A stretch of 64,000 bases of DNA from an uncultured Flavobacteriaceae bacterium (GCA_963704895.1 CAVPID010000002.1:638752-702751), one strand, 5' to 3'; positions 11,417 through 64,000 are shown, counted from the stretch's first letter. Numbers and translations are program-made. The notes: generated by a model not told the origin, from the letters alone.

Positions 11417-12604
11417 TTATAATTTGAAATAATCTATATAGGTCTGTAAATCTTTATCACCTCTTCCAGAAAGATTGATAACAACAATATCGTCTTTTTG
11501 AAACTTTCTGTGGTCAAATATGGCGAAAGCATGTGATGTCTCTATTGCTGGTATAATGCCTTCTAATTGAGATACCATTAAACCTGCTGCCATTGCCTCA
11601 TCATCGGTAATTGAAATAAATTCACCCCTCCCGGAGGTGTACAGATGTGCATGCATAGGACCTACGCCCGGATAATCCAGGCCGGCGGAAATAGAATATG
11701 GTTCAGTGATCTGACCGTCTTGAGTTTGCATAAGCAGTGTTTTGCTACCGTGAATAATACCAACCTTTCCCAGAGCAGAAGTTGCTGCACTTTCTCCGGA
11801 ATGAATGCCCTTTCCGGCGGCCTCGACAGCAATGATACCAACATCTTCATTATCCAGATAATGGTAATAGGCACCAGCGGCATTACTTCCACCACCCACA
11901 CAAGCCACAATAAAATCAGGGTCCGGAGTGCCTTCTTTTTCCAGCAACTGAGACTGTATTTCCTCTGAAATTACTGATTGAAATCTGGCCACCATATCGG
12001 GATAGGGGTGCGGACCAACAACTGAACCTATAATATAATGGGTGTTTACCGGATTATTAATCCAGTCGCGTATTGCCTCATTCGTAGCATCCTTGAGCGT
12101 TCTGCTACCCGATAGGGCCGGCCTTACTTCTGCTCCCAGCATTTTCATTCTAGCCACATTAGGTGCTTGACGTGCAATATCTATTTCACCCATATAAACC
12201 ACACACTCAATTCCCATGAGTGCGCAAACTGTAGCGGTAGCCACCCCATGCTGTCCGGCACCTGTTTCTGCGATGATTCGTGTCTTGCCTAACCTTTTGG
12301 CCATTAAAATTTGCCCAATGGTATTATTGACTTTATGGGCACCGGTATGACATAAATCTTCCCTTTTCAGATAAATTTTTGTTTTATACTTATCCGAAAG
12401 GCGTTGGGCAAAATATAGAGGTGTGGGCCTTCCTACATAATCTTTTAATAGTCTATGGAATTCTTCAATAAAAGATGGTTCCCCCATAATCTGAAGATAG
12501 TTTTGTCTAAGTTCTTCAGTATTAGGGTATAGCATTTCTGGAATAAATGCCCCACCAAACTGTCCGTAATAGCCTTTGTCATCAGCATGATAAGTCATAT
12601 TCAT
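11417..12604 (-). CDS. trpB: Tryptophan synthase beta chain
   Basis: 395 aa with the [19 protein letters not shown]-lysine motif and GGGSNA. Confidence 0.97.
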
Positions 12605-45174: not shown

Positions 45175-48100
45175 ATGGAAAAAAATACCCCAACCAAAAT
45201 ACGAGATAAAGCGACTTTAGGCTTTAGCTTGATAACTGCCATTCTAGTTTTAGTTTTTTCTTCTTCTTTTGACACGATTCCGTCAGATTATGATTTTATG
45301 ACTACCTATGCGGATACGGACACGGATAATGATGGTATAAAGGATCTTATAGATATTGATGATGACAATGATGGTATTATAGATTCAATAGAAGATAAAA
45401 ACCCAGACGGGGATAATAATCCATTAACGCATCCAACAGACACTGATAAAGATGGGGTTCCCAATCACCTTGATGTCGATTCAGACAATGATGGAATTAT
45501 TGATAATGTGGAAGCGCAGTCGACGCACGGTTATATCGCCCCAAGTGGAATTGATTCTGATGGTAACGGACTAGATGACAACTATGAAGAAACACCTGGC
45601 AGTTGTGGGGGACTGGTACCCATAGATTCAGATTTGGATAGTTATCCTGATTATTTAGATATCGATAGCGATAATGATGGGATTTTAGACAATGTAGAAG
45701 CTCAAACTACCGCAGATTTTCAGGCACCCTGTGGCATGGATTCAGATGGCAACGGCCTGGATGACCATTATGAGGAATCTCCAGGTAGTTGTGGTGGATT
45801 AATACCTGTAAATACAGATGGTGACTCCCAACCTGATTATAGGGATATCGACTCAGATAATGATGGTATTCTGGATAATGTGGAAGCTCAGGAAGCTGCC
45901 AGTTTTCAACCACCCTGCGGTATGGATAGTGATGGCAACGGTCTTGATGATCATTACGAAAATACACCGGGCTCTGGAGAAGGACTCCATCCGATAAATT
46001 CCGATAATGACCCCAATCCTAATTTTAGAGATATTGATTCCGAAAATGATGGTCTACCTGATAATATAGAGGCACAGACCACAAGTGGCTATATTCTTCC
46101 ATCTGGTTTGGATGATGATAAAGACGGCCTGGACAATGCTTACGAAGGAACAGGTGATCAAGGTCTTACTCCGGAGAATACAGACGGTACGGACGAGCCG
46201 GATTATTTGGATACGGACACGGATAACGATTTGGTTCCTGATAATAATGAAGGGAACGATTTTAATTTTGATGGGATCCCTGATCAGACATTTACTGGTA
46301 CAGATACCGATGAGGATGGTCTTGATGATGGCTATGAGGGCAGTGATTTAAATGATCCTTTTCTGGTAAATGACGAAATAACAGACCCGGCAACTGATTT
46401 ACCGGATACGGATGGTACTGAGGATGTTAACTACCGTGACCTGGATGATGATGGGGATGGTTTGGACACCCCTGACGAGGATGCCAATGAAGATGGCGAC
46501 CCTACTAATGACGATACCAGTGGTAATGGTACCCCTGATTATTTAGATCCTGATACTACAAATACTGATCCTGATCCTGATACCGATGGAGATGGGGTAA
46601 AGGATAGTACAGACCTGGATGATGACAATGATGGTTTGCTGGATACGGAAGAAGATCCCAATCTGGATACTGATGATAATCCGTTAACCAACCCATTGGA
46701 CAGCGACGGTGATGGTTTTCCAAATCACCTGGATATCGATTCAGATAATGATGGATTACCCGATAATATAGAAGCACAGACCACCAGTGGTTATATATTA
46801 CCCAATGAAGACGACGAGGCAACTTATGTGACCAATGATGGGGTGAACTCTGCATATTTAGGGGGTCTAACTCCAGTGAATACAGATGGTTCGGACGAGC
46901 TCGATTATTTGGATACCGATACGGACAATGATCTAGTGCCTGATAATAATGAAGGGAATGACTTTAATTTTGATGGGATTCCTGATCAGACCTTTACCGG
47001 TACAGATACCGATGAGGATGGTCTTGATGATGGCTATGAGGGCAGTGATGTAAATGACCCTTTTGTAGTAAATGATGAAATAACAGACCCGGCAACTGAT
47101 TTACCGGATACGGATGGTACTGAGGATGTTAACTACCGGGATATTGATGATGATGGTGATGGTCTGGATACTCCTGATGAGGATACTGATGGTGATGGTG
47201 ATCCTACCAATGATGATTGCAGTGGTAATGGAACGCCTAATTATTTAGATCCGGATACAACCACTTGTGATCCGGATACAGACGGTGATGGTGTGACTGA
47301 TGAAAATGAAGTCGCAGATGAAACCGATCCAACAGATCCTTGTGATTTTATTTTAGCTAGCCAAACCGTAACTCCTTCCGAGGAATGGGACAACTTAGAT
47401 TGTGATGGCGATGGGGTTACCAATGAAGATGAGGTTTCGGATGGAACTGATCCTTTAGACTCTTGCGATTTATTACTTGCAAGCCAAACGGTAACACCAA
47501 CCACAGATTGGAATAACCTGGACTGCGATGGCGATGGTGTAACTAACGGTGACGAAGTTACCGATGAAACCGATCCATTGGATCCTTGTGATCTTTTACT
47601 GGCTAGCCAAACAGTAACGCCTTCAGACGAATGGAATATTCTGGATTGTGATGGCGACGGGGTAACTAATGGCGATGAAGTTTCGGATTCAACAGATCCC
47701 TTAGATCCTTGCGACTTTAACCAAGACAGCGTAACGCTTACACCAAGTGGCGATTATTTAGTAGCAGATTGCGACGGTGACGGGGTAACAAATGGTGATG
47801 AGGCTACAGATGGAACAGATCCATTAGATTCCTGTGATCTAATATTGGCAAGCCAAACGGTGACCCCAACCATTGATTGGAGCAATTTGGATTGTGACGG
47901 TGACGGCGTAACTAATGGTGATGAAGTTGCTGATGCAACAGATCCATTAGACTCTTGTGATCTTATACTGGCAAGTCAAACAGTAACTCCAACCACTGAT
48001 TGGGATAACCTGGATTGTGACGGTGATGGGGTAACCAATGGCGATGAAGTTTCGGATGCAACAGATCCTTTAGACTCTTGTGATTTTATACTGGCAAGTC

Positions 48101-49884
48101 AAACGGTAACTCCAACCACGGATTGGATCAGTCTTGATTGTGATGGCGACGGAGTAACCAACGGGGATGAAGTTTCGGATTCAACAGATCCCTTAGATCC
48201 TTGCGATTTTAATCAAGACAGTGTAACGCTTACGCCAAGTGGTGATTATTTAGCGGCAGATTGCGATGGTGACGGGGTAACAAATGGTGATGAGGCTACA
48301 GACGGAACAGATCCATTAGATTCTTGTGATCTTATATTGGCGAGCCAAACGGTGACTCCAACAGTTGAGTGGAATAACCTGGATTGTGATGGCGACGGGG
48401 TAACTAATGGTGATGAAGTTGCAGACGCAACGGATCCTTTAGACTCTTGTGATCTTATACTGGCAAGTCAAACAGTATCTCCAACCGATGATTGGGATAA
48501 CCTCGATTGCGACGGTGATGGTGTAACCAATGGGGATGAAGTTATTGATTCAACAGATCCATTAGATCCATGTGATCTTCTACTGGCAAGTCAAACAGTG
48601 ACTCCCTCTGAGGAATGGAATCTCCTGGATTGCGATAACGATGGAAATTCTAACGGAACGGACCCTAATCCCCTAATTGCAACAGCAGTGGATGATTCCG
48701 GAACGACCCTTCCTTTAACAGAGGTAGTAATTAATATCTTAGCGAACGATGATTACCTTCCTAATAATGATCCCAACAATCTGGGAACTACATCTATAAC
48801 CAGAATTGGAGGAGACGCAACCGGAATTGTTTCTTTTGATCCGGAAACAGGAGAACTATCATATACTCCGTCTGCATCAGAAAACAATATAAATATTACA
48901 ATTATCTATGAAGTATGTAATACGGATCCTGATCCGGATGTATGTGCTTCGGCTACAGTTACCATATTTGTATCAGATAATCCAATAGATGCCGTTGATG
49001 ATGATTTTAGTGAATTGTTAGCAGATGGCACGGATGGAGGCGTTATAGAAGGAGGTAATATATTTGATAATGATATTTTAAACGGTATGGCCCTCGATCC
49101 GGCTGATGTAACCTTAACATCAACGCCAACAGGTCCGTTAACAATAAATCCTGATGGTACCGTTAGTGTAGCTCCTGATACGGCCCCGGGTACTTATTCC
49201 ATAGATTATACGATATGTGAGATTGCAAATCCAATAAACTGTGATACTGCAACCGTAACGGTAGAGGTCATTAATGTTACCATAGATGCAGTGGATGATG
49301 ACTACAGCGATATTTTTATAGATGGTGAAGATGGTGGCATTTTACCGGATAGCAACGTTTTGGATAATGATACCTTGAATGGACTGTCAGTTGATCCTGA
49401 GGATGTAACAATTACATCCACACCAACAGGTCCGTTAACAGTAAATACAGATGGCACCATTAGCGTTGCTCCGGATACTCCTACAGGATCGTATAGCATT
49501 GAATATACAATATGTGAGAATGAAAATCCAACTAATTGTGACACCGCTACTGTTGTGGTATTGGTTTCAGAAACAATTTCAGGTGCCATTGAAGTCAATC
49601 AATTAGTAACGCCAAATAATGATGGCAGAAATGATTTCTTATTTATTAACGGAGTAGAAAATGCGTTGAATAATTCTCTGAAGATATTTAATAGATGGGG
49701 TGTTGCTGTTTACGAAGGCAGAAACTATAACAACCAAAATAACGTTTTTGATGGCAGATCAAGAGGGAGATCAACGATTAGTGCCGAAGATTATCTGCCT
49801 TCTGGAGTATATTTCTATATCTTTGAGTATCAAAAAGACCAGGAAAATATTTCTAAAAGTGGTTATCTCTACATAAGTAAATAA
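45175..49884 (+). CDS. Giant acidic Ca-binding-repeat surface protein with T9SS type B C-terminal sorting domain
   Basis: 1569 aa. N-terminal TM/signal segment, then many thrombospondin-type-3-like DxDxDGxxDxxD repeats. These are followed by 12 Cys-paired 39-aa repeats and three Ig/cadherin-like units. The C-terminus ([17 protein letters not shown]...[12 protein letters not shown]...GVYFYIFEY...GYLYISK) matches the gliding-motility-associated (type B) CTD. Confidence 0.9.
46031..47200 (+). repeat. Intragenic segmental duplication (two copies of about 470 bp, offset about 700 bp)
   Basis: 46031..46500 and 46733..47200 align base for base over long stretches. For example, the run aatgaagggaa.gatttt/cttt aattttgatggga..cctgatcaga and the run ggtacagataccgatgaggatggtcttgatgatggctatgagggcagtgat are identical in both copies. 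Confidence 0.8.
47270..48665 (+). repeat. About 12 tandem 117-bp (39-aa) coding repeats: D-P-C-D-[FL][10 protein letters not shown]3[24 protein letters not shown]
   Basis: Counted in the translated ORF: 10 CDGDGVTN units plus diverged first and last units. Confidence 0.85.
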
Positions 49885-49887
49885 TAC

Positions 49888-50853
49888 ATGGTAAAGTATA
49901 TGATATTTAGCAAGCGCAACTTTGTTTTTCTAATACTGATTTTTACCACAATAGGAGGTTTATTGGCACAGCAAGATGCCCAGTACACGCAATATATGTA
50001 TAACACAATGAGCGTTAATCCTGCCTATGCTGGTTCAAGAGGACAACTGAGTATTGCCGGTTTGTACAGATCTCAGTGGGTTGGCCTCGCAGGAGCTCCG
50101 GAAACATTTACAATAAATCTTCATTCACCTATAAGGAATAGTAAATTAGGCTATGGAGTATCTATAATTAATGATAATATAGGTGATGGTGTAGTTCAGG
50201 AAACTTATTTGGATGGGGTGTTGTCTTATACTATTGACGTGTCCTACGAAGGGAAATTGTCTTTTGGTCTGAACGCAGGCGGTAGTATGCTGAACCTCGA
50301 TTTTAACGGGTTGAATAATTTTGACAATGAACCTATTACAGGGGATAATATAGATAATAAATTTACACCTAATTTTGGTTTGGGAGTGTATTATCATACC
50401 AATAAATTTTACTTAGGAGTATCAGCCCCCAGGCTGATTGCCTCAGATTATTTTGATAATTCTCAACGGGATTCGAATAGTGTGCAATTTCTATCCAGGG
50501 AGAAAATCAACTTCTACTTAATCACTGGAGTTGTACTTGATTTAAACAGTCAGCTAAAATTTAAACCGGCTTTACTGACTAAATTAGTAGGAGGTGCTCC
50601 TTTACAAGTAGATCTTTCAGCAAGTTTTTTATTGAATGAGAAATTCTCCTTTGGCCTGGCATACAGATGGGATGCGGCTTTTAGCGCATTAATTGGATTT
50701 CAATTATCAGATCAGCTAATGCTTGGTCTGGCTTATGATAAGGAAACTACAGAATTAGGAAGTACTCAATTTAATGATGGGTCATTTGAAGTATTCCTAA
50801 GATTCGAATTGGTTAAATCATTTCAGCGTTTAGTATCACCCCGATTCTTTTAA
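49888..50853 (+). CDS. PorP/SprF-family T9SS outer-membrane protein
   Basis: 321 aa. Signal peptide followed by the hallmark QQDAQYTQYMYNTMSVNPAYAG N-terminus, with beta-barrel-like alternation and a C-terminal F. It starts 4 nt after the type B CTD gene. Confidence 0.9.
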   Translation: MVKYMIFSKRNFVFLILIFTTIGGLLAQQDAQYTQYMYNTMSVNPAYAGSRGQLSIAGLYRSQWVGLAGAPETFTINLHSPIRNSKLGYGVSIINDNIGDGVVQETYLDGVLSYTIDVSYEGKLSFGLNAGGSMLNLDFNGLNNFDNEPITGDNIDNKFTPNFGLGVYYHTNKFYLGVSAPRLIASDYFDNSQRDSNSVQFLSREKINFYLITGVVLDLNSQLKFKPALLTKLVGGAPLQVDLSASFLLNEKFSFGLAYRWDAAFSALIGFQLSDQLMLGLAYDKETTELGSTQFNDGSFEVFLRFELVKSFQRLVSPRFF

Positions 50854-50864
50854 ATTTTAATTAA

Positions 50865-52799
50865 ATGACAAAAAAAATACTCTTAACTTCAATCCTGACA
50901 GTATTTCTGCTGGCCATGACATTTGCACAGGAAAGACGAGTAGTCAAGGGTAATAAGAAATATGCAGAATATTCATTTAGTCCGGCTATTGATATATATA
51001 AGAAAGTACTGGATAAGGGATATGTGAGCAGTGATCTATTGCAAAAATTAGGGAATTCATATTATTTTAATGCAAATTATGAAGAGGCCGAAAAGATTTA
51101 TAAACAACTTATTGAAACCTATGGTTCAGAAATAGGTCCGGAATATTTTTTTAGGTATGGCCAAACACTTAAAACCCTGGGAGATTATACGAATTCAGAT
51201 TCTATCCTGGCCCGTTTTTCGGAAATGACGTCAAATGATTTGCGTTCAAAAATAATTAAAACGGCAAAGGATTATAAGGAAGAAATTGCCAGAAATTCCG
51301 GCCGTTATGAGCTTGAACTCTTCGAGTACAATTCCAAATATTCAGATTTTGCACCTGCATTTTATAAAGAAGGTTTGATCTTTTCTTCAGACCGTGACAC
51401 AGGAAACCTTGCCAGATATCGCCATACATGGAATTCCAAAGACTTTCTGGATATTTATAAAGTAAATGCAGACAGTAGTTCCAGTAACCGGGTAGTAAAG
51501 ATGAATATGATTAATTCCAGACTTCATGAATCTACTTCCGTAGCTACAAAAGATGGTAATACCATTTATTTTACCAGGAATAACTTTATTGATGGCAAAT
51601 CTAAAAAAGATGAAGAAGGAGTAATTAGATTAAAGATTTTTAGGATTAACTGGAAGGATGGCGAATGGTCAGGCCTGGAAGAGTTACCCTTTAACAGCGA
51701 TAGCTATTCAGTTGCCCACCCGGCTTTAAGCCCTGATGAAAAAACGCTTTATTTTGCTGCAGATATGCCAGATTCAAAGGGAGAATCTGATATTTATAAG
51801 GTTTCTATAAAAGAGGATGGCACCTTTGGTTCACCAATAAATTTGGGTACCCCGATAAACACGGAATCCAGGGAAACATTCCCTTATGTTAGCAGTGAAA
51901 ATATCCTTTATTTCTCTTCAGATGGTCACCCGGGTCTTGGAGGCCTGGATATTTTTGCGACTAAAATTGACTATGATGATTATTCAAAATCTGTATTAAA
52001 TGTAGGGGAGCCTGTGAATAGTAAAAAGGATGATTTTTCCTATATAATTAATGAGGAGACTAAAAAAGGGTATTTTGCATCTAATCGCTCCGAAGGAATG
52101 GGAGCCGATGATATTTATGGTTTCTTAGAGACCAGACCTTTAAATTTTGAATGTCTCCAACCAATAACCGGTACAGTGCGTGATAAAATTTCCAATGAAG
52201 TACTTGTAGGTGCCACGGTCAAAGTAATTAATGAGGATAATGAAGAAGTTCTATCTGCAATAACTGATAACAAGGGAGATTATATCTTAAGTTGTGATTG
52301 TAATCAGGGGAATTTTGTAAGGGCACAAACCCAGGGTTATATGCCGGCTGAGGAATATTTACCAATATCTGATGGTAAGCCCATAATAATTGATTTTTAT
52401 TTGGAACGTGAAATAATCGAAGCAGGTTTTGGGGATGATTTAGCGAAACTGTTGCAATTGAGCACCATCTATTTTGATTTTGGAAAATATAATATCAGAC
52501 GCGATGCGGAAATTGAAATTCAAAAGGTGATCGCTGCAATGGAAAAATATCCAAGTCTGAAAATAAAGGCTAATTCACACACAGATAGTCGGGGAGCTGA
52601 TTCATTTAATCTTTGGTTGTCACAAAAAAGAGCTGAGGCAACCGTCGCATATATGATTTCTCAAGGCATAAGTGCGGAGCGTCTTATAGGTGAGGGCTAT
52701 GGAGAAACCCGTCTGGTAAATGAGTGTGATGATGGTATAAAATGTTCCAGCGAAAAACACCAATTAAATCGCAGATCAGAGTTTATTATTTTGGAATAA
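50865..52799 (+). CDS. PorE-like OmpA-family protein (TPR + Tol-type beta-propeller + carboxypeptidase-regulatory-like + OmpA_C)
   Basis: 644 aa. TPR-like N-terminus, then PD40-type repeats (LIFSSDRD, IYFTRNN, LYFAADMPDSKGESDIY, LYFSSDGHPGLGGLDIF). These are followed by a CRD-like segment TGTVRDKISNEVLVGATVKV and an OmpA_C domain (IYFDFGKYNIR...HTDSRG...N..LS..RA......GYGE...NRRSEF). Confidence 0.85.
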   Translation: MTKKILLTSILTVFLLAMTFAQERRVVKGNKKYAEYSFSPAIDIYKKVLDKGYVSSDLLQKLGNSYYFNANYEEAEKIYKQLIETYGSEIGPEYFFRYGQTLKTLGDYTNSDSILARFSEMTSNDLRSKIIKTAKDYKEEIARNSGRYELELFEYNSKYSDFAPAFYKEGLIFSSDRDTGNLARYRHTWNSKDFLDIYKVNADSSSSNRVVKMNMINSRLHESTSVATKDGNTIYFTRNNFIDGKSKKDEEGVIRLKIFRINWKDGEWSGLEELPFNSDSYSVAHPALSPDEKTLYFAADMPDSKGESDIYKVSIKEDGTFGSPINLGTPINTESRETFPYVSSENILYFSSDGHPGLGGLDIFATKIDYDDYSKSVLNVGEPVNSKKDDFSYIINEETKKGYFASNRSEGMGADDIYGFLETRPLNFECLQPITGTVRDKISNEVLVGATVKVINEDNEEVLSAITDNKGDYILSCDCNQGNFVRAQTQGYMPAEEYLPISDGKPIIIDFYLEREIIEAGFGDDLAKLLQLSTIYFDFGKYNIRRDAEIEIQKVIAAMEKYPSLKIKANSHTDSRGADSFNLWLSQKRAEATVAYMISQGISAERLIGEGYGETRLVNECDDGIKCSSEKHQLNRRSEFIILE

Positions 52800-52825
52800 A
52801 AACTTTCAATTAAAAATAGTTTTTA

Positions 52826-52858
52826 AAGCAGCTACCAAAAGTAGCTGCTTTATTTTTT
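52826..52858 (+). terminator. Terminator closing the three-gene T9SS cargo unit
   Basis: The 10-bp stem AAGCAGCTAC/GTAGCTGCTT has a 5-nt loop and is followed by TATTTTTT. Confidence 0.75.
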
Positions 52859-53056
52859 ATAGGTTTAAAAATCATTAATGGAAGGGCTTCATCGTTCAAC
52901 TGCACGCCAAATGTCTCCGTAATTTGCTCAAAAAAAATTTGCTAAACTTCGGTAACCCGGCTTTTCACCAGCCGAATGAGCACTTATACAACAAATATTT
53001 AATAGAAAGGATTATCAAAGGTATTTTTGATGCTTATAGCTATACCTGTGTATAAA

Positions 53057-56000
53057 ATGAAGCATTGCTCATTGTTATTTGCCTTGATTCTTCTGGCCCT
53101 TTTAGGTTCAGCAGTTCAATCATATGGACAGGGAACATTCCTGGATAATTTCAATACTACCTTATATTCCAACAATAACGGAACGGCTAATTTTGCCACA
53201 AACTGGGTTGAATCCAATGAGACGACAGATCCCACGAATGGGAGAATATTGATTAACAGCAATCAGTTACGCTTTCAGAATTTAGATGATAGATTCATCA
53301 CAAGGACTTTAGACCTATCTGCTGCCACTTCAGCCATATTAACATTGGACTTTCAAAGAACTAATGGGAATGAATCCATCCTGGTACAGTTGTTTGATGG
53401 GAGTTCGTTTAACACCATAGCTACTTTAGCTGGAAACGGTTCGGTAAATTATACACTAGCGGCAGCGGAAATGTCAGGAACATCAGCAATCAGATTTATT
53501 ACAGGTAGTGGTAACTGGGGAAATAGCGAGACCATTTTTATTGATAATGTACAGTTTGTGACTACCTCCACGCCATTTATCTCCATTGATGATGTATCGG
53601 TTAATGAGAATGCAGGAACAGCAACGTTTACGGCCACTCATTTGGGTCTTCCTACCGGAGGTCCATTTACGGTGAATTACCAAACTGTTGATGGTACGGC
53701 TACGGCAGGAAATGATTATACGGCCATTGCAGGTGGTATATTGAGCTTTAACGGAACTGTTGGTGATACAGAAACCATCGTGGTATCAATCACGGACGAT
53801 ACGCTTTTTGAATCTGCAGAAACCTATACCATTCAATTAACAGGAACTTCTGATATTTCAGTCAATATCACTGATACGGGTACTGGGACTATAAATGATA
53901 ATGAAGTGGTATTCGGAAATACTCCACTTACCCTTTTTAGGGAATTTGATGGTTATATGGACTATACCTCTACAGCAGGTACACTGAGGACACAGCCAAA
54001 TACGGTAGATCCATGCTCGATTACTACTTCCTCATCCAACACATTGAGTTCTCCAATACCTGCAGGAGCAACAATTGATGCCGCGTATCTTTATTGGTCT
54101 CATTCCGGGGCTACTATGGATTCTCAGGTAACTTTTGAAGGTACCACAATAGATGCGCAGGTGGCATATACAAGTTCTATCATAGGGCTTACGTTTTATG
54201 GCATGTTTAGTGACGTAACCAGCCTTGTAACGACTATTCCTAATCCATCTGCGAATGTCTATGATTTTTCAGGTCTGACAATAGACAATACTGGTTCTTA
54301 TTGTGGTAGCAGTGTTGTTTTGGGAGGATGGTCATTGATGATATTTTATACAGATACCAGTCTCCCGGCTTCTACAATTAATCTTTATCAGGGTTTTGAC
54401 GGGAATCAGAATTCCTCATCCACATTTTCATTAAGCGGTTTTTATGCCATTGGATCTGTGGGTTCGAAAACAACAGCCTTGTCTTGGGAGGGAGATCAGA
54501 CCCTTGCGAACAATGAATCCCTGCAATTTACAACCCCATTGTCCGGAACCAACCTTCTGACAGGTGACGGAGATAATGATGGGATTTCGGCAAACAATCC
54601 GTTTAATTCCACGCATTTTGACAATACTGTATTACCGAACCTTAACAACACCGCTTCCCATGGGGTAGATCTGGATACTTATGATGTATCGGCCTTTATC
54701 CTTCCCGGGGAAACCAGCGCAACCACGCAGGTAAATGTAGGTCAGGATTATGTAATCATGAACGCTGTAGTACTCAAGGTACCATCCAACTTAATTACCG
54801 GACGAGTATTTGAAGATATGAATTATGGAGGAGGAGCCGGGCGAAACTATGCATCTGCTTCTGGTATTGGATTGCCCGGTGTAACGGTTGAATTATATGA
54901 TTCAGTGGGTACTCTGGTAGATACCCAAACCACGGATGTATCAGGTTCCTATGTTTTTGCCGGGATGGTTAATGGAACTTATAGTATTCGTGTGGTAAAT
55001 GGAAGTGTCAGATCTTCGAGACCCGGAGGAAGTGCTTGTACAAGCTGTATACCTGTCCAAACTTTTAAAACCGAATATATAGCCAGTGTTTTGGTAGAAA
55101 GGGCAAATGAAGTGGGTGGTGCAAATCCGTCTGCAGCAGATACCGGTGCAGGAGTATTTGCTGGCGCACAAACTTTAGCTTCGGTGACCATAGTAAATGA
55201 AGGTGTTGCCGGATTGGACTTCGGTTTCAATTTTAATGCAATTGTGAATACCAATGAAGATAGTCAGGGTTCTTTGGAACAATTTATCGTGAACAGCAAT
55301 GAATTAGGAGAAACCGGGCTCGATATTGAAGCCAATGGTATTTTTGATCCTGCGGCAGGAGAAGATACTTCTGTATTTATGATCCCACCAACAGGAGATG
55401 CCCTGGGAAGAACGGCAGATACAAATTTTGTAAGTGGTTATTTTGATATTTTAATATCTAATGGAAGTCCATTAACCAACATTACCGGCAACAATACCAA
55501 AATAGATGGCAGAGCACAAACCGCCTATTCCGGAAATACAAATTCCGGAACAATAGGTTCGGGAGGAAATGCTGTGGGAACTTCTGCCACACTATTACCA
55601 AATTTTGATCTTCCTGAGATACAGCTTCACAGAAACAATGGCGACGTAATCATTACAGAAGGTAGTTCTGTAGGGATAAGAAATATTTCCGTATATGCTG
55701 GTAATAACTCCGGAATTAGGGTGGATAATGGCTCCCCTACAATATCCAATAATCTATTGGGTGTCAATGCTCTAGGCTCTAATTCAGGGAATATAAATTA
55801 TGGAGTAGAAATAACCAGTGGTACTACTGTTGTAGAGGGCAATTATATAGCGACCAATACAGATTCGGGAATTTTGATTGACGGAGGTAGCTCTTCCACT
55901 ATTCAAAATAACCATATAACAACGAACGGTAATGGCCCTTGTGATGATAATATTACAATTGTAGGTGGAACAGGAATCGTGATACAACAGAATTTAATTG

Positions 56001-56797
56001 AAAATGCCTCGGGTCTAGGTATTGACGGGGATGGAATTTCAGGAAATGTATCAATACTGGAAAATACAATTACTGGTTCTGGCCAGGATGGAGGTACCTG
56101 TAGCGGAAATCTTGAAAATGTAGGGATATTGCTTGACGGTAATAATTCTGCTATTACAAATAACATTATATTTTTCAATGGTGGCCCGGGAATCGTTCTG
56201 GCCGGAGGTAACACCAGTGGAAATCTGATATCTCAAAACTCCATTTATGCCAATGGAACGGCTACGGATGCTCTGGGTATTGATTTAGACGATTCGGATA
56301 ACACCGGAGACGGGGTTACCCTGAATGAGAATGGGGATGCGGATAATGGACCTAATGGTTTATTGAATTTTCCAATTATAACAAGCGCTTATATGTCCGG
56401 GACTAACCTTGTGATCAAAGGATGGGCACGTCCCGGGGCTACTGTAGAGGTTTTTCTGACCGATGTCAATGAAGGAACTGCCGCGGCGGGAGATAACGAA
56501 TTAGGCTTTAGTACAGACTATGGTGAAGGTCAGGTATATCTGGGTACTGCCGTCGAAGGAAGTGGTGCTGATCTTGATTCGGGTAGCTCTTCTTATACTG
56601 ATGTTGACGGAAATACGGACAATACCAACCGTTTTCATTTTAATATAGCAATTCCTCCTATGGCTTCTATTGGTGATTTTATAACTGCTACTGCTACGCT
56701 AAGCAACAGTACTTCTGAATTTTCTCCGATGAGTGTGCTAAAAGTACAAACGATCATTACAAATCGAAGAATTACCTATAGGGTTAATCGCAACTAG
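53057..56797 (+). CDS. Large secreted surface protein (jelly-roll N-domain, Calx-beta, SdrD-B/Cna-B-like, parallel beta-helix repeats) ending in a short ITNRRITYRVN tail
   Basis: The track ORF starts at 53027. ATG 53057 gives a clean signal peptide (MKHCSLLFALILLALLGSAVQSYGQ). The Calx-beta signature is FISIDDVSVNENAGTATF...VDGTATAGNDYTA. The Cna-B-like segment is GRVFEDMNYGGG...GVTVELYD..G......TTDVSGSYVF. PbH1-like repeats are present (NNLLG, GNYIATN, NNHITTN, QNLIEN, NNIIFFN). I recognise no T9SS type A or type B CTD. Confidence 0.8.
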   Translation: MKHCSLLFALILLALLGSAVQSYGQGTFLDNFNTTLYSNNNGTANFATNWVESNETTDPTNGRILINSNQLRFQNLDDRFITRTLDLSAATSAILTLDFQRTNGNESILVQLFDGSSFNTIATLAGNGSVNYTLAAAEMSGTSAIRFITGSGNWGNSETIFIDNVQFVTTSTPFISIDDVSVNENAGTATFTATHLGLPTGGPFTVNYQTVDGTATAGNDYTAIAGGILSFNGTVGDTETIVVSITDDTLFESAETYTIQLTGTSDISVNITDTGTGTINDNEVVFGNTPLTLFREFDGYMDYTSTAGTLRTQPNTVDPCSITTSSSNTLSSPIPAGATIDAAYLYWSHSGATMDSQVTFEGTTIDAQVAYTSSIIGLTFYGMFSDVTSLVTTIPNPSANVYDFSGLTIDNTGSYCGSSVVLGGWSLMIFYTDTSLPASTINLYQGFDGNQNSSSTFSLSGFYAIGSVGSKTTALSWEGDQTLANNESLQFTTPLSGTNLLTGDGDNDGISANNPFNSTHFDNTVLPNLNNTASHGVDLDTYDVSAFILPGETSATTQVNVGQDYVIMNAVVLKVPSNLITGRVFEDMNYGGGAGRNYASASGIGLPGVTVELYDSVGTLVDTQTTDVSGSYVFAGMVNGTYSIRVVNGSVRSSRPGGSACTSCIPVQTFKTEYIASVLVERANEVGGANPSAADTGAGVFAGAQTLASVTIVNEGVAGLDFGFNFNAIVNTNEDSQGSLEQFIVNSNELGETGLDIEANGIFDPAAGEDTSVFMIPPTGDALGRTADTNFVSGYFDILISNGSPLTNITGNNTKIDGRAQTAYSGNTNSGTIGSGGNAVGTSATLLPNFDLPEIQLHRNNGDVIITEGSSVGIRNISVYAGNNSGIRVDNGSPTISNNLLGVNALGSNSGNINYGVEITSGTTVVEGNYIATNTDSGILIDGGSSSTIQNNHITTNGNGPCDDNITIVGGTGIVIQQNLIENASGLGIDGDGISGNVSILENTITGSGQDGGTCSGNLENVGILLDGNNSAITNNIIFFNGGPGIVLAGGNTSGNLISQNSIYANGTATDALGIDLDDSDNTGDGVTLNENGDADNGPNGLLNFPIITSAYMSGTNLVIKGWARPGATVEVFLTDVNEGTAAAGDNELGFSTDYGEGQVYLGTAVEGSGADLDSGSSSYTDVDGNTDNTNRFHFNIAIPPMASIGDFITATATLSNSTSEFSPMSVLKVQTIITNRRITYRVNRN

Positions 56798-57027
56798 CCC
56801 CTTTTATTATTTTAGCTTAAAAATCGAAAATTTCCCTCTTTATAAATAGTTTATATACAATTAATTAAGTGTATTATACATAATCAAAACCACAGCTTAG
56901 TCATAGTTGGTGATTGAATAATCCATCTACGCAACATTTATTTTGCCCTGAAAATCAGAAGGTTAATTTTACATATTACATTAATCCGTACGGAAATTAA
57001 TATTTCCTTCGGAAAAAAGATTAACCA

Positions 57028-59058
57028 ATGTTGGGAAGAGATACCCTCTTAGTGGTTTATAAAATCAGTTGCAGTCTAGTATTTATCCTGTTTCTTCTTT
57101 CATTTGGAGGAGTAAAAGCCCAAACGACCATCTGGGCCGAAGATTTTAATTCATATCCCAATGGTACAATTACAGGAGCCGGAATTGGTACCTCTCCCGT
57201 GAATTGGAACTCACAAGCTGGAGCAGGGGTATCAGGAGGACTTATCCTGGCAAGTAACACAAGAAATGTAGCGTCTTCAACACTCGCTAATCCTTTAATT
57301 TGGGTAACTGACCCCATTAATATAAATGGCAATACCAATGTTACTTTTAGTTTAAATGTTGGTGCTTTTAATGTTGCCAATTTTGAAGACAGTGGCGGGT
57401 CTCAGGATAATTTTACATTGGAGTACAGAATCAATGGAGGAGCAGGCAGTTGGGTCACCGTAGTAAGCGCTTCCGGATCGGCGGCTCAACCAATTAATCC
57501 GTCCTACAGTATTTCCGGATTATCCGGTTCAACACTGGAGGTCAGGGCAAATTTTCATAATACTGCAGGGAATGAAAACTATACGATTGATGATGTTCAG
57601 GTAACAGGTTTTCCAACAGTACCGAATCAACCACCTGTACTGTCAGCAACTGGCGATCAGGTCTACTGTCCCGGAACGTCTATGCCGATTGTTCAAAGTA
57701 TAAGCATTACAGATCCGGATGATACGAGTACCAGTGCCGTTTATATTCAGATTTCTACCGGTTATCTAAATGGGGAGGATTTACTCACACTAACAGGAGT
57801 TCACCCAAATATTACCTCTTCCTGGGATGCTGTACAGGGAGAATTATCACTACTGGGCCCTGCCACCTATGTTGAATTTGAAGCAGCAATTTTGGCAGTG
57901 GAATATACAAGCAGCGCTCCGGTTCCAACAGGCACGAGACAATTTTCTACAACAGTAGGAACAGCTAATTATTTGCCGTCGACAGGGCACTATTACGAAT
58001 ATGTTTCTAATCTTGGAATAACCTGGACCTCGGCCAATATCGCTGCAAATTCAAGAACCTATTTTGGGTTACAAGGGTATCTTGCAACCTTGACTTCACA
58101 GGAAGAAGCGGATTTTTCGGGATCGCAGGCTTCCGGCGTTGGATGGATTGGTGGAAGTGATGCTGCTACAGAAGGCGTTTGGTTATGGGTTACTGGCCCT
58201 GAAGCAGGCACTAACTTTTGGAATGGAACTGCCGGTGGTAGTTCTCCTAATTTTGCATTTTGGAATACGGGTGAACCAAACCAGTCTGGAAATGAAGATT
58301 ATGCCCATATCACACACCCCAACGTAAATCCTAATGGGTCCTGGAATGATTTAACAAATACAGGTGCGGCATCAGGAAATTATCAGCCACAAGGCTATGT
58401 CGTTGAATATGGGGGTATGCCTGGAGATCCAGTATTAAGCCTAACTGCAACTACAACGCTAAATATGGATACCGTAGATCCAACCGCTAGTAATCCGTCA
58501 CCTGTTACAGTGTATTGTACCTCAGATGTTCCTGGTGTGGATGTAAATGTAGTTAGTGATGAAGCAGATAATTGTACTTCCAACCCTGTAGTTACTCACG
58601 TAAGTGATGTAAGCGATGGTGGAAGCAATCCTGAAATTATTACACGTACCTACAGAATAACCGATGATTCCGGGAATAGTCTTGATGTAACACAGACCAT
58701 AACCGTAGATTCTATCGAGATTACTACCCAACCTTCTGATCAGAATGTATTTGTTGGCAATAATGCCATATTTGCGGTAAACACTTCAAATGCAGATACA
58801 TATCAATGGCAACTAAGTACAAATGGAGGAAGTAGTTTCAGCAACATTTCCGATGGCAGTGAATATTTGGGAACGTCAACTACGTCCCTAACAATATTGG
58901 CCCCAGAAATCGTCAAAAATGGCTACTTATATAGAGTACTGGTTTCAAACTCAGGTGCAACTTGTCCACAAGTTACTTCAAACTCGGCAATTCTCAATGT
59001 TAGGGTAGCCACTGTTATCACAAACCGAAAAATCACTTTCAGGGTTAATAAGAGTTAG
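57028..59058 (+). CDS. Secreted surface protein with jelly-roll N-domain, C-type lectin domain (EPN/WND), HYR-like and Ig-like domains, ending in an ITNRKITFRVN tail
   Basis: 676 aa. The signal/TM segment ends GGVKAQ. The CTLD segment is GHYYEYVSN.ITW..A......YFGLQGYLATLTSQEE..F......GWIGGSDAATEGVWLWV..PE...FW......GEPN..GNEDYA.......NGSWNDL. Confidence 0.8.
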   Translation: MLGRDTLLVVYKISCSLVFILFLLSFGGVKAQTTIWAEDFNSYPNGTITGAGIGTSPVNWNSQAGAGVSGGLILASNTRNVASSTLANPLIWVTDPININGNTNVTFSLNVGAFNVANFEDSGGSQDNFTLEYRINGGAGSWVTVVSASGSAAQPINPSYSISGLSGSTLEVRANFHNTAGNENYTIDDVQVTGFPTVPNQPPVLSATGDQVYCPGTSMPIVQSISITDPDDTSTSAVYIQISTGYLNGEDLLTLTGVHPNITSSWDAVQGELSLLGPATYVEFEAAILAVEYTSSAPVPTGTRQFSTTVGTANYLPSTGHYYEYVSNLGITWTSANIAANSRTYFGLQGYLATLTSQEEADFSGSQASGVGWIGGSDAATEGVWLWVTGPEAGTNFWNGTAGGSSPNFAFWNTGEPNQSGNEDYAHITHPNVNPNGSWNDLTNTGAASGNYQPQGYVVEYGGMPGDPVLSLTATTTLNMDTVDPTASNPSPVTVYCTSDVPGVDVNVVSDEADNCTSNPVVTHVSDVSDGGSNPEIITRTYRITDDSGNSLDVTQTITVDSIEITTQPSDQNVFVGNNAIFAVNTSNADTYQWQLSTNGGSSFSNISDGSEYLGTSTTSLTILAPEIVKNGYLYRVLVSNSGATCPQVTSNSAILNVRVATVITNRKITFRVNKS

Positions 59059-59213
59059 AAATAATTTAGATATGAAGGATTGTTCATTCATGATAAATTT
59101 ATAAACGCTTACTAATTAGTCCTTTAGCTTAAATATTTCTTTTTTTAGTAGTGAATCGGTTATAATCCCACGCTCAAATCCGACAAATAAAATTTCTAAT
59201 AGTAAATGTCATT

Positions 59214-59468
59214 TTGAATACTGACATCTGTCAATTGCAGCCATTAAATGGCTATATATCGGTAGATTTAGCAGATACAGTAATCCATACTGGCAAAAAT
59301 TTCAATGTATTAATTATTACGGGTGTAACTTCTTCAGATGACGGTGACCATTTCAGGGTTATAATCTCAAAAAATATGTATATCTGTAGTGATATTACGT
59401 TCAATTTTATGACGCTCAGCATCCATGTAAATACCATAATAATCAATAGAAAATTGTCTGTAGAATAA
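59214..59468 (+). pseudogene. Decayed 3' remnant of an adhesin gene of the same family (Ig-like domain + tail)
   Basis: The 84-aa ORF ends ...DDGDHFRVIISKNMYICSDITFNFMTLSIHVNTIIINRKLSVE*. This parallels ...NGYLYRVLVSNSGATCPQVTSNSAILNVRVATVITNRKITFRVNKS* of the upstream gene. It has no signal peptide and no N-terminal body. Confidence 0.45.
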
Positions 59469-60570
59469 TCAAAAATTAAGATAATTATTTTTGCTCCAAA
59501 ACAGCTTAAAATGACGATTTTTCTTACACCTTACCCCTCGGTAAGTGCTGATATAATTGGGATAATCGACCAACGAAACCCCAGAAATTTTAAATTATTT
59601 TTAGCCAACACTTCAATTATCGATGTTTATACAATGCATTTCAACGAGTACACAACAATTATTTTACCAGGGCAGTCATAGGGTTAATTTTGTAATGTGT
59701 AATTAAACCGTTTGAATAATAAACTATTGATTGATGGATTAATCCATCCCCCAGATTATGAATAACTTGACCAACTTAATGAAGTTTAATCAGGCTTGGG
59801 TTCTCTACGGACCATGGAGAAATTCTCTCCGGCCAGAACAAATTTCTTTTCTGTTCGAAAAAAGATATTCCCATTGTCAATTTAATGCTGGTTAATCTCT
59901 TATAAGAATATGATTTAGTTCATATAATGGAAGACAACCAAATAATATTTGTTACACAATTAGAACTGTTAAGTTGAAATAAATATTAGGTAAAAATAAA
60001 GTCATGAAACTAAGACTCTTATTATTAGTATTTCTGGTATCCGGATTTGCTTTTGCCCAAACCACGGTTACGCTGCAAGATCAGTGTAATTGTGAGGTCC
60101 TAAGCGGGACTGCTGTGAATGCAGCAGGGGCAATTAATCCATCAGGGGCAGATACAGGAGATATTTATGTAAATACAAACACAGGTACTATTTATTTTTG
60201 GGATGGTAATAGCTGGGAGTTAACAGCAACAGATGACCAACAGCTTCAGAATTTTAATTTCAATGGAGCTACTAATACACTGACTTTAGATATTGAAGAT
60301 GGTAATTCTGTTTCAGTAGATTTATCCTCTTTAAGTAATAGTGGAACGGATGATCAGGCACTTACCCTGGTTGGTAATATCCTTACTTTAGAAGATGGTG
60401 GTACTGTAAATCTTGCACCCTATTTAGATAATACAGATGATCAAACCATAACCGCATTTAGTATAGATGCAGCGAATATTCTTACGATTACCTTAGAAAG
60501 TGGTAATACAAGAACCGTTGATCTGTCTACCCTGATAGGTACTGATGATCAGACCGCGGCGGAAGTTAAT

Positions 60571-62925
60571 TATGACAATACCACCTCGCTTTTAACGGCG
60601 ACCAATGTACAGGATGCGATCGATGAGATCAATGCAGCTGCCGGAACGGTAGCTTTGGTTGATAATGGTGATGGCACGTATGATTTCACCGATGCCGCAG
60701 GAACGACCACCACGATAACGGATACCTCCATTTCTACTTTGGTAGATAATGCAAATGGAACCTATACCTATACAGATGAGACGGGTGCAACCCAAACTAT
60801 TGATACCAATGCGAGTGCAAACCCATATGACAATACAACTTCTGGCTTAGCGGCCCTGAATGTACAGGATGCGATTGATGAGATCAACGCAGCTGCCGGA
60901 ACGGTGGCTTTGGTTGATAATGGTGATGGCACGTATGATTTCACCGATGCCGCAGGAACGACCACAACGATAACGGATACCTCCATTTCTACTTTGGTAG
61001 ATAATGCAAATGGAACCTATACCTATACAGATGAGACGGGTGCAACCCAAACTATTGATACCAATGCGAGTGCAAACCCATATGACAATACAACTTCTGG
61101 CTTAGCGGCCCTGAATGTACAGGATGCGATCGATGAGATCAATGCAGCTGCCGGAACGGTGGCTTTGGTTGATAATGGTGATGGCACGTATGATTTCACC
61201 GATGCCGCAGGAACGACCACCACGATAACGGATACCTCCATTTCTACTTTGGTAGATAATGCAAATGGAACCTATACCTATACAGATGAGACGGGTGCAA
61301 CCCAAACTATTGATACCAATGCGAGTGCAAACCCATATGACAATACAACTTCTGGCTTAGCGGCCCTGAATGTACAGGATGCGATCGATGAGATCAATGC
61401 AGCTGCCGGAACGGTGGCTTTGGTTGATAATGGTGATGGCACCTATGATTTCACCGATGCCGCAGGCACTACCACCACGATAACGGATACCTCCATTTCT
61501 ACTTTGGTAGATAATGCAAATGGAACCTATACCTATACAGATGAGACGGGGGCAACACAAACCATTGATACCAATGCGAGTGCGAACCCTTATGACAATA
61601 CCACTTCGGCTTTTAACGGCGACCGAATGTACAGGATGCGATCGATGAGATCAATGCAGCTGCCGGAACGGTGGCTTTGGTTGATAATGGTGATGGCACC
61701 TATGATTTCACCGATGCCGCAGGCACTACCACCACGATAACGGATACCTCCATTTCTACTTTGGTAGATAATGCAAATGGAACCTATACCTATACAGATG
61801 AGACGGGGGCAACACAAACCATTGATACCAATGCGAGTGCGAACCCTTATGACAATACCACCTCGCTTTTAACGGCGACCAATGTACAGGATGCGATCGA
61901 TGAGATCAATGCAGCTGCCGGAACGGTGGCTTTGGTTGATAATGGTGATGGCACCTATGATTTCACAGATGCCGCAGGCACTACCACCACGATAACGGAT
62001 ACCTCCATTTCTACTTTGGTAGATAATGCAAATGGAACCTATACCTATACAGATGAGACGGGGGCAACACAAACCATTGATACCAATGCGAGTGCGAACC
62101 CTTATGACAATACCACCTCGCTTTTAACGGCGACCAATGTACAGGATGCGATCGATGAGATCAATGCAGCTGCCGGAACGGTGGCTTTGGTTGATAATGG
62201 TGATGGCACCTATGATTTCACGGATGCCGCAGGAACGACCACCACGATAACGGATACCTCCATTTCTACTTTGGTAGATAATGCAAATGGAACTTATACC
62301 TATACAGATGAGACGGGTGCAACGCAAACCATTAATACCAATGCGAGTGCAAACCCATATGACAATACTACTTCAGGCTTAGCGGCCTTGAATGTACAGG
62401 ATGCGATCGATGAGATCAATGCAGCTGCCGGAACGGTGGCTTTGGTTGATAATGGCGATGGCACCTATGATTTTACCGATGCCGCAGGAACGACCACCAC
62501 GATAAGGGATACCTCCATCTCTACTTTGGTGGATAATGCAGATGGAACTTATACCTATACAGATGAGACGGGTGCAACGCAAACCATTAACACCAATGCG
62601 AGTGCAAACCCGTATGACAATACTACTTCAGGCTTAGCGGCCTTGAATGTACAGGATGCGATCGATGAGATCAACGCAGCTGCCGGAACGGTGGCTTTGG
62701 TTGATAATGGTGATGGCACGTATGATTTCACCGATGCCGCAGGAACGACCACAACGATAACGGATACCTCCATTTCTACTTTGGTGGATAATGCAAATGG
62801 AACCTATACCTATACAGATGAGACAGGGGCAACCCAAACTATTGATACCAATGCGAGTGCAAACCCATATGACAATACAACTTCTGGCTTAACGGCACTG
62901 AATGTACAGGATGCGATCGACGAAT
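60571..62925 (+). repeat. Tandem array of about 9.2 near-identical 255-bp (85-aa) repeats
   Basis: The marker aatgtacaggatgcgat recurs at 60604, 60859, 61114, 61369, 61626, 61881, 62136, 62391, 62646 and 62901. Every spacing is 255 except one of 257. Confidence 0.95.
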
Positions 62926-63392
62926 TGTCAGTTGGTAGTAGTGATGATCAAAATCTAACCGGAGCTACTCTCGATGGGGCTAACCAATTACAAATTGATA
63001 TTGAGGATGGAAGTTCTGCCACAGTTGATCTTTCTTCCCTAGCAGAAACTGTCATTGCCGGAACAGGAGCCATTACAGTTACAGATGATGGTAATGGTAA
63101 TTATACCGTTAATTCAACAGATCCGGATGAAGACTTAACAAATGAACTTACTTTAATAGGAGCAGGAGTACCGGCTGTTATACCTAGTAATAGCGGGGTT
63201 ACTTATGTGGATAGTGTTGCAGGACAGTTATATATTTATGATGGAGCTACATGGATTGCCGTTGGAGGTAGTTCTAGCCCTGATTTGGATGGCGACCCGA
63301 CCAACGAGCAGAACACAGGATTTGCCGTGAATGGTGGAAATCTTGAAATTACTGATAGTGGAGGAACACTTGGTGTAGCCTTATCTTCATTA

Positions 63393-64000
63393 GGTACAGA
63401 CGACCAGAATATAGAGAGTTTAGGATTAGCCGGAAACATACTTACTGTAGGTATTGAAGACGGTACTTCACAGACGGTAGATTTATCTGCCTTAAACGAT
63501 TCAGGTACGGACGATCAGAACCTAACCGGAGCTACCTTAACAGGAAACAGTCTTCAGATAGATATTGAGAACGGTAGTTCTACGACCGTGGATCTTTCTA
63601 CCCTTGTTGGTACGGACGATCAGAATATTGCAAGCCTGGGTGTGAATACCTCAACTAACGTATTAACGGTAGGCATAGAGGATGGTACCAGTCAGACTGT
63701 AGACTTGTCTCATTTAGATGATGCAGGTACCGACGACCAGAACATAGAGAGTTTAGGATTAGCCGGAAACATACTTACTGTAGGTATTGAAGACGGTACT
63801 TCACAGACGGTAGATTTATCCGCCTTAAACGATTCAGGCACAGATGATCAGAACATAGAGAGTTTAGGATTGGCCGGAAACATTCTTACTGTAGGTATTG
63901 AAGACGGTACTTCACAGACAGTAGATTTATCTGCCTTAAACGATTCAGGTACGGACGATCAGAACCTAACCGGAGCTACCTTAACAGGAAACAGTCTTCA
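63393..64000 (+). repeat. 105-117-bp coding modules (G-T-D-D-Q-N-x-x-x-L-x-L-x-G-N-x-L-T-V-G-I-E-D-G-T-S-Q-T-V-D-L-S-A-L-N-D-S) with a 444-bp higher-order period
   Basis: Module starts (ggtac.gacga.cag) are at 63393, 63504, 63609, 63726, 63837 and 63948. The modules at 63393 and 63837, and those at 63504 and 63948, are near-identical, 444 bp apart. Confidence 0.85.

Follow-up and report, generated by a model that had tools for sequence, protein, structure and literature searches.

Two proteins with a common C-terminal tail

The window analysed here, 64,000 nucleotides of DNA from an uncultured Flavobacteriaceae bacterium (GCA_963704895.1, CAVPID010000002.1:638752-702751), encodes on its plus strand two large proteins, P1 and P2, that end in nearly the same short, basic tail. 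P1 (53057..56797, 1246 aa) is a predicted secreted, adhesin-like protein in which a signal peptide is followed by Calx-beta and SdrD_B domains, a right-handed beta-helix, a domain ending in ...NSTSEFSP and the tail; alternative starts lie further 5', at 53027 and 53030. P2 (57028..59058, 676 aa), also a predicted secreted carrier, consists of a signal peptide, a jelly-roll-like N-terminal domain, a C-type-lectin-like core, an HYR-like domain, an Ig-like domain and the tail, the Pfam matches to the HYR-like, C-type-lectin and Ig domains being weak. The tail occupies 56744..56794 in P1 (VQTIITNRRITYRVNRN; stop codon 56795..56797) and 59005..59055 in P2 (VATVITNRKITFRVNKS; stop codon 59056..59058). 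Translated with their stops, 56744..56797 reads ...VLKVQTIITNRRITYRVNRN-stop and 59005..59058 reads ...LNVRVATVITNRKITFRVNKS-stop, and the longer C-terminal stretches are ...SPMSVLKVQTIITNRRITYRVNRN-stop for P1 (open reading frame (ORF) 53027/53057..56797) and ...SAILNVRVATVITNRKITFRVNKS-stop for P2, giving a common ending of ...[VI]ITNR[RK]IT[YF]RVN-x-x-stop.

A first-pass annotation of the window had drawn attention to these near-identical tails, and translation bears it out; the five synonymous codon differences that it listed (acg/act, att/atc, aat/aac, att/atc, acc/act) are seen in the DNA. Sec-type signal peptides, likewise predicted, are present at both N-termini with cleavage before Gln, between SYG and QGTF in P1 and between VKA and QTTIW in P2. 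The annotation was also right that the domains upstream of the two tails differ, but it had placed the beta-helix of P1 immediately before the tail. The Beta_helix match (Pfam) in fact stops at residue 1017 of 1246, and a further region of ~190 aa, C-terminally ...NSTSEFSP, lies between helix and tail. Scored with a local hidden Markov model (HMM) of the tail, P1 reaches 26.7 bits, with the match extending to the last residue, and P2 32.2 bits. These are exactly the two good copies in the 64-kb window by six-frame regular-expression and local HMM scans, everything else scoring below 2 bits. The exact P2 sequence is present in two NCBI metagenome-assembled genomes, and its nearest named homologues come from Eudoraea; the bacterium behind the window is Eudoraea-like.

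Downstream of P2, also on the plus strand, an 84-aa ORF (59214..59468) holds the remains of an Ig domain and a decayed tail, and homology identifies it as the 3' relic of another tail gene. A Muriicola tail protein matches it across Ig domain and tail, with 46% identity over 81 aa (E 1e-24). The third, degraded tail copy that had been reported here is therefore real, although its start was put at 59427, 3 nt off: its 14 residues, HVNTIIINRKLSVE, span 59424..59465. No reading frame was found 5' of the ORF, and the remnant tail (TIIINRKLSVE) gives no score with the tail HMM. Taken with the homology to an Ig domain and tail, this suggests that the ORF is probably a pseudogene fragment, the 3' end left from a lost third tail gene, and that the tail decays once the protein is lost. 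Public assemblies that contain the locus annotate the 84-aa remnant as protein-coding (12187..12441 in locus L001, 5391..5645 in locus L002).

Known type IX secretion system (T9SS) sorting domains do not account for the C-termini of P1 and P2. The last 120 aa of the two proteins matched no C-terminal domain (CTD) model and no other family of Pfam-A (2025) or NCBIfam 20.0 at E<=1. The type A CTD models (TIGR04183/PF18962) gave no match at E<=1 in P1, in P2 or in eight further tail proteins of other domain classes, and the type B models (TIGR04131/PF13585, CHU_C) gave none in P1 or P2. The absence of both types, which the first-pass annotation had asserted, holds at E<=1 for the whole proteins as for their last 120 aa. 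The positive control was a neighbouring 1569-aa cargo protein (45175..49884, plus strand), whose type B CTD, also correctly called before, is matched by PF13585 at 88.7 bits and by TIGR04131 at 37.1 bits (cutoff 35). For the ChiA-type CTD (type C), no NCBIfam match at E<=1 was found in the last 120 aa, release 20.0 being assumed to include a type C model. A doubled tail searched against NCBIfam at E<=10 returned nothing relevant, its one hit being a 9.6-bit chance match to a Wolbachia WPE element model, and the tail profile had 0 matches among PDB sequences at E<=10. Full-text searching of the literature, both for the peptide string and for newly described sorting signals of flavobacteria, was negative.

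Distribution, conservation and carriers of the tail

We scanned one genome per species (596 Gb) with a degenerate DNA pattern for T-N-R-x-I-T-[YF]-R-V-N. The pattern matched in at least 119 loci of other genomes, where ~3 matches would be expected by chance according to our own estimate, which assumes equal base frequencies. The counts that follow are made among the matches listed, each with an 8-kb neighbourhood (the listed loci). All named organisms among them are Flavobacteriaceae, of ~20 genera: Maribacter, Zobellia, Pseudozobellia, Arenibacter, Croceitalea, Croceivirga, Flagellimonas/Muricauda, Eudoraea, Muriicola, Robiginitalea, Zeaxanthinibacter, Poritiphilus, Cellulophaga, Tenacibaculum, Aquimarina and others. 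Among the matches listed, the tail is confined to a subset of marine Flavobacteriaceae and is not phylum-wide.

The position of the motif is highly regular. A stop codon follows within 1-4 codons in 124/128 matches, and exactly two residues follow V-N in 105/126 instances; the residue two past the motif is N in 87, D in 15 and G in 5 of these 126, and 16 proteins end one residue sooner. When all ORFs of the listed loci were scored with the local tail HMM, the distribution was bimodal, with 141 C-terminal matches at >=14 bits, 5 internal matches, and all other scores below 4 bits. Searching 1.84 billion representative proteins with a tail profile of 17 columns gave 17 matches at E<=1e-3, every one of them (17/17) at the last residues; because so short a motif cannot provide a census in a database of that size, the position of these matches is informative and their number is not. 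The expectation that the motif would recur elsewhere, nearly always at the extreme C-terminus and on signal-peptide proteins of unrelated architecture, thus holds for the matches and carriers listed.

Within the set found by the DNA scan, the invariance of T-N-R-x-I-T-[YF]-R-V-N is a product of the search pattern itself. The homologues of P2, which were found via homology and not via the motif, give a view free of this bias. The tail was recognised by regular expression in 113 of the 120 best P2 homologues, and near-variants are present in 5 of the other 7. In an alignment of 62 P2 homologues, no segment is better conserved than the tail core, whose column entropy is 0.57 bit vs 1.41 for the adjoining Ig domain. 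N666 and R672 are invariant in this alignment, and I664, T665, R667, I669 and T670 nearly so. Natural variants have R, K, G or N at the second basic position, Y, F or H at the aromatic one, and V-N, V-K or V-D.

At the DNA level the picture is different. All synonymous codons occur at every tail position of the listed loci, including all six Arg codons, and the information content of third positions is 0.2-0.6 bit at four- and six-fold sites and ~1 bit at two-fold sites. There is no conservation 3' of the stop in the aligned listed loci, and no coding room there either. The free use of synonymous codons and the lack of conserved DNA past the stop indicate that selection acts on the tail peptide and not on the DNA, which extends to the listed loci what the first-pass annotation had concluded from the two window copies. 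A DNA-level element, be it a terminator, a recombination site or a CTD reached by read-through, was rejected on the same two observations.

The tail is found on proteins that otherwise have little in common. We clustered the 83 residues upstream of the tail in 134 carriers and obtained 13 classes, whose tail-proximal domains (Pfam) include Big_9/cadherin-like, DUF7933, IgGFc_binding with DUF11, Ig_7 ('CHU_C associated'), FG-GAP, GEVED, C-type lectin, PA14, P-domain and beta-helix. Ig_7 and GEVED domains typically stand directly ahead of C-terminal sorting domains. The N-termini of the carriers belong to more than 10 unrelated families. By our own heuristic, used for signal and lipobox calls instead of SignalP, an N-terminal hydrophobic signal is present in 78/92 complete carriers, with [AGSTV]Q at its end in 73 of the 78, and a lipobox in none of the 92. 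The NCBI names of carriers among the P2 homologues refer to internal domains or are hypothetical, and never denote sorting-domain proteins. In their position of the motif, their signal peptides and their varied architectures, the carriers have what is expected of proteins with a generic C-terminal sorting tag.

Composition sets the tail apart from the proteins that bear it. The tail is 27% K+R and 0% D+E, and carrier bodies average 3.0% K+R, vs 4.4% for the bodies of bona fide type B cargo and 9.0% for the other ORFs of the listed loci (P1 2.6%, P2 2.5%, the type B cargo at 45175..49884 1.5%, RpoB 13%). The tail is the sole basic patch on the carriers and holds most of the basic residues of their C-terminal end. 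In an AlphaFold2 model of P2, built from the 62-sequence alignment, the Ig domain (564-659) is predicted with a local distance difference test score (pLDDT) above 90, and the tail (661-676) is modelled as coil with a pLDDT of 43-53. On the basis of this low-confidence coil, the tail is predicted to be unstructured on its own protein and not to form a strand of its own domain. Such a coil would be typical of a motif that folds on binding, and the VIT-NRR-ITYRV pattern would suit a beta-hairpin or an edge strand.

Separately, P1 and many other carriers have in common a module of ~150 aa directly after the signal peptide, with the pattern Q-x-T-[FY]-x-D-N-F-x-x-x-S-Y-x-N-N-x-G-x-x-N-[FW]...IDNV and no confident Pfam assignment. 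Several carrier families are thus bracketed by conserved elements at both ends.

Genes around the tail carriers

Upstream of P1, all on the plus strand, the gene for the type B cargo is followed by one for a PorP/SprF-family outer-membrane protein (49888..50853; TIGR03519 260 bits, PF11751 296 bits) and one for a PorE-like or CHU_0125-like protein with TPR, PD40, CarboxypepD_reg and OmpA domains (50865..52799). Directly 3' of the PorE-like gene is a terminator-like hairpin (52824..52852), a 12-bp stem followed by a T-run. Past the tail genes begins the gene for a giant acidic repeat protein, REP (60004..64000, plus strand), which runs beyond the end of the window and is frameshifted near 61610. 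This island, in the order type B cargo, PorP/SprF, PorE-like, one to three tail genes and REP, is found in about half of the listed loci. Counted over the 8-kb neighbourhoods of 119 listed loci, REP adjoins tail genes in 49, a PorE-like gene in 21 and PorP in 13, and none of these neighbours is universal. In a search for paralogue pairs with the same penultimate domain, one ending in a type B CTD and the other in the tail, no alignment extended to the junction within the listed loci.

The REP proteins are 1.4% K+R and 14.8% D+E. They have a conserved N-terminal domain (QTTVxLQDQCNCEVL...IYFWDGNxWELT) and a C-terminal domain of ~100 aa (...RIFYPPSI...LYYYVTYxDP...LINVVFVVK-stop) without a Pfam or NCBIfam match. 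In the window and five listed loci, the family ranges from 172 aa to more than 2400 aa and has no canonical T9SS CTD. The tail gene precedes REP in the Maribacter/Flagellimonas/Eudoraea group and follows it in Aquimarina and Tenacibaculum. In the window, the REP frame breaks at ~61610 inside a tandem array (60604..62920) of nine 255-bp repeats with 95% identity, and another frame continues to the window end; the break is either a true frameshift or pseudogene, or a repeat-collapse assembly error. The same REP gene is annotated as 731 aa in locus L002, vs 578 aa here.

A candidate sorting or anchoring tag

All T9SS signals known so far, whether of type A, B or C, are folded domains of ~80-100 aa, and the secretion and anchoring of type B cargo depend on PorP/SprF and, in P. 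gingivalis, on PorE (PMC10202324). The tail resembles these CTDs in belonging to Bacteroidota, in being modular and in forming the very C-terminal end of multidomain proteins that are Sec-exported and adhesin- or enzyme-like. Tail carriers and T9SS cargo also share the domains Ig_7, GEVED, DUF11 and SdrD_B, and the carriers are encoded next to a module of type B cargo, PorP and PorE-like genes. The CTDs differ in being folded beta-sandwiches of ~80-100 aa, whereas the tail has 15-17 aa, is predicted to be disordered and has no HMM similarity to them.

Other C-terminal signals offer partial likenesses. The LPXTG/sortase, PEP-CTERM/exosortase and GlyGly-CTERM/rhombosortase systems also use a short conserved C-terminal signature with basic residues on unrelated secreted proteins of one lineage, but there a transmembrane helix follows the signature, whereas the tail ends 1-2 polar residues past V-N. 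No NCBIfam model of a C-terminal sorting signal matches the tail, and no linked sortase-like gene was seen in the 8-kb neighbourhoods. We know of no substrate for the XrtF of Flavobacteriia. As a reader of the tail, XrtF, which occurs in Flavobacterium (PMC10936215), was rejected, the tail having no transmembrane helix and this host genus being absent among the matches listed. The outer-membrane beta-signal read by BamA is a C-terminal strand of alternating residues, as the tail may be; it differs in its terminal aromatic residue and in forming the last strand of a beta-barrel, whereas the tail carriers are soluble multidomain proteins. Judged by its sequence, the tail may thus represent a kind of C-terminal sorting or anchoring tag unlike the described members, with neither a transmembrane helix nor a folded CTD.

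We consider it somewhat probable that the tail serves as a modular C-terminal tag and is read in trans, for export and/or for anchoring at the surface. Such a tag would comprise ~15 residues, [VI]-x-[TS]-[VIL]-[IV]-T-N-R-[RK]-I-T-[YF]-R-V-N-[KRQP]-[ND]-COOH, borne by Sec-exported, adhesin-like, K/R-poor proteins of marine Flavobacteriaceae. Unstructured on its own protein, it would be recognised in trans by a partner, probably by folding as a beta-strand or beta-hairpin (VIT-NRR-ITYRV) and extending a partner sheet at its edge, with the Arg and Lys residues of the tail supplying charge complementarity. Thanatin-type hairpins on LptA are an example of docking by such beta-augmentation. The tag would in this way bring its carrier across the outer membrane and/or keep it at the cell surface.

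The most likely route would run through the T9SS, the tail acting either as a minimal, non-canonical cargo signal or as a docking tag for anchor modules of the PorP/SprF-PorE type. We regard this link as tentative, with somewhat less than an even chance. It is the likeliest of the routes because the carriers are Sec-exported, large, surface-type proteins, because their composition resembles that of T9SS cargo and their domains are typical of it, because they are often encoded beside PorP/PorE modules, and because we know of no other route by which large folded proteins cross the outer membrane in this phylum. A more far-reaching reading would make the tail the address label of an unrecognised sorting route, sufficient on its own to take large folded adhesins to the surface and to hold them there. 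That route could be a fourth, radically shortened class of T9SS signal, or a separate receptor or scaffold system of the outer membrane could bind the tail as its ligand; we regard this reading as possible but as having rather less than an even chance.

The sorting or anchoring role was put forward in the first-pass annotation as a candidate, and as a candidate it is supported by the position, modularity and peptide conservation of the tail and by the absence of CTD models from its carriers. Of the refuting tests that the annotation named, every one that could be run computationally came out in favour of the sorting-tag reading. The tail may alternatively act as a docking strand or a donor strand, as the annotation also proposed. 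Candidate is also the right level for the claim because no co-occurring processing or anchoring gene was identified in the 8-kb neighbourhoods.

Several observations weigh against a tag read in trans and against a T9SS route for it. A signal of 15 aa would be unprecedented in the T9SS, whose known signals are folded domains several times that length. About half of the listed loci have unrelated neighbours, so that no universal partner gene is evident, and no receptor, peptidase or transporter was identified in the 8-kb neighbourhoods. In the window itself, the strong terminator-like hairpin parts the PorE-like gene from P1, which therefore looks like a separate transcription unit, and the adjacency to T9SS genes may be conserved synteny only. 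The unbiased view of tail conservation is limited to the homologues of P2, a single protein family. Finally, the tail is internal in five Aquimarina ORFs from three carrier families, where an S/T/P/G-rich linker and then a domain of ~108 aa ending in ...ACGCVSFYKL-stop come after it; these cases imply that a free C-terminus is not strictly needed, unless the extension is removed. The ~108-aa domain has no Pfam or NCBIfam match. It was also considered as a fused form of a tail partner encoded separately elsewhere (the Rosetta-stone argument), and this was set aside as uninformative: in 5.8 billion clusters the domain has no more than four homologues, and in one of these no tail precedes it.

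The abundance of REP genes next to tail genes raises another explanation, in which the tail would serve for docking, in the manner of a dockerin, and not for export: lectin, PA14, beta-helix and cadherin-like binding modules would be held non-covalently on a scaffold, with REP as the leading candidate, and would be exported by some other feature of the carriers. By analogy, dockerin-cohesin and donor-strand systems likewise place a C-terminal tag on varied payloads, and the tail has hairpin propensity and a possible scaffold nearby. Dockerins are folded Ca-binding modules of ~70 aa. The tail differs in its shortness and in having no known cohesin-like partner, so the likeness would be one of mechanism only. 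REP itself has several scaffold-like properties, its ends being conserved around a repeat core of variable length; it adjoins tail genes in two different gene arrangements, one REP occurs per locus with several carriers, and its acidity would complement the cationic tail. Yet REP is missing from the 8 kb around many tail genes, the REP repeats diverge strongly between species while the tail is nearly invariant, and docking would leave unexplained how proteins of 700-1600 aa that lack a CTD cross the outer membrane. We judge a docking role without an export role to be unlikely.

That the tail is the sole basic patch on very acidic, K/R-poor proteins could also mean that it is an electrostatic anchor, a cationic beta-hairpin that holds polyanionic proteins on lipopolysaccharide (LPS) or capsule. 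Arg-rich beta-hairpin peptides bind anionic LPS, and the alternation of hydrophobic and polar residues around the N-R-R centre would be in keeping with such a peptide, with a possible resemblance to thanatin-type hairpins. Charge is not the only conserved property of the tail, however: the uncharged T, N, I, T, Y, V and N are near-invariant in ~20 genera among the matches listed, which favours a specific protein reader over generic charge binding. LPS and capsule chemistry differs between species, and export would again be left unexplained. An electrostatic anchor is, in our view, improbable.

The same lack of basic residues in the carrier bodies (~3% K+R) places nearly all tryptic-type sites in the tail, as might be expected if it were a site of processing or maturation, either as a propeptide at the C-terminus or as the unique place where an Arg/Lys-specific surface protease or transpeptidase cuts, with no part in targeting. 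Removal at the tail would fit the extra domain that follows it in Aquimarina. But type B cargo bodies are poor in K/R too and have no tail, cleavage seldom calls for 13 near-invariant residues whose distance from the C-terminus is fixed, and no linked protease gene was seen in the 8-kb neighbourhoods of the listed loci. A processing site is, in our view, slightly more improbable still.

Least probable of all is that the tail has no function of its own, as a structural cap or a hitch-hiking fragment that duplication and domain shuffling have spread, or that a canonical CTD was missed, for example one encoded past the stop: 59 of the 134 clustered carriers are paralogues with the same Ig-like penultimate domain and carriers cluster in tandem, but the tail also follows 13 unrelated penultimate domains, its peptide is nearly invariant while synonymous sites are free, AlphaFold2 leaves it unpacked on its own domain, neither a CTD model nor post-stop conservation or coding room points to a missed CTD, and in the remnant at 59214..59468 the tail has decayed once the gene was lost.

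In Bacteroidota, T9SS cargo is predicted with the CTD models for types A, B and C. None of these recognises the tail carriers, a large group of giant surface and adhesin proteins with one nearly invariant ending of 15 residues. The carriers, which include proteins with lectin, PA14, cadherin-like and beta-helix domains, come from marine polysaccharide degraders of ecological importance, among them Zobellia, Maribacter, Cellulophaga, Flagellimonas, Tenacibaculum and Aquimarina. Should the tail indeed be a sorting or anchoring signal, it would represent a new class of secretion or display signal and would point to a receptor. It would improve the annotation of secretomes in which carriers are now named by internal domains or as 'hypothetical', and it could serve as a very small surface-display tag for flavobacteria.

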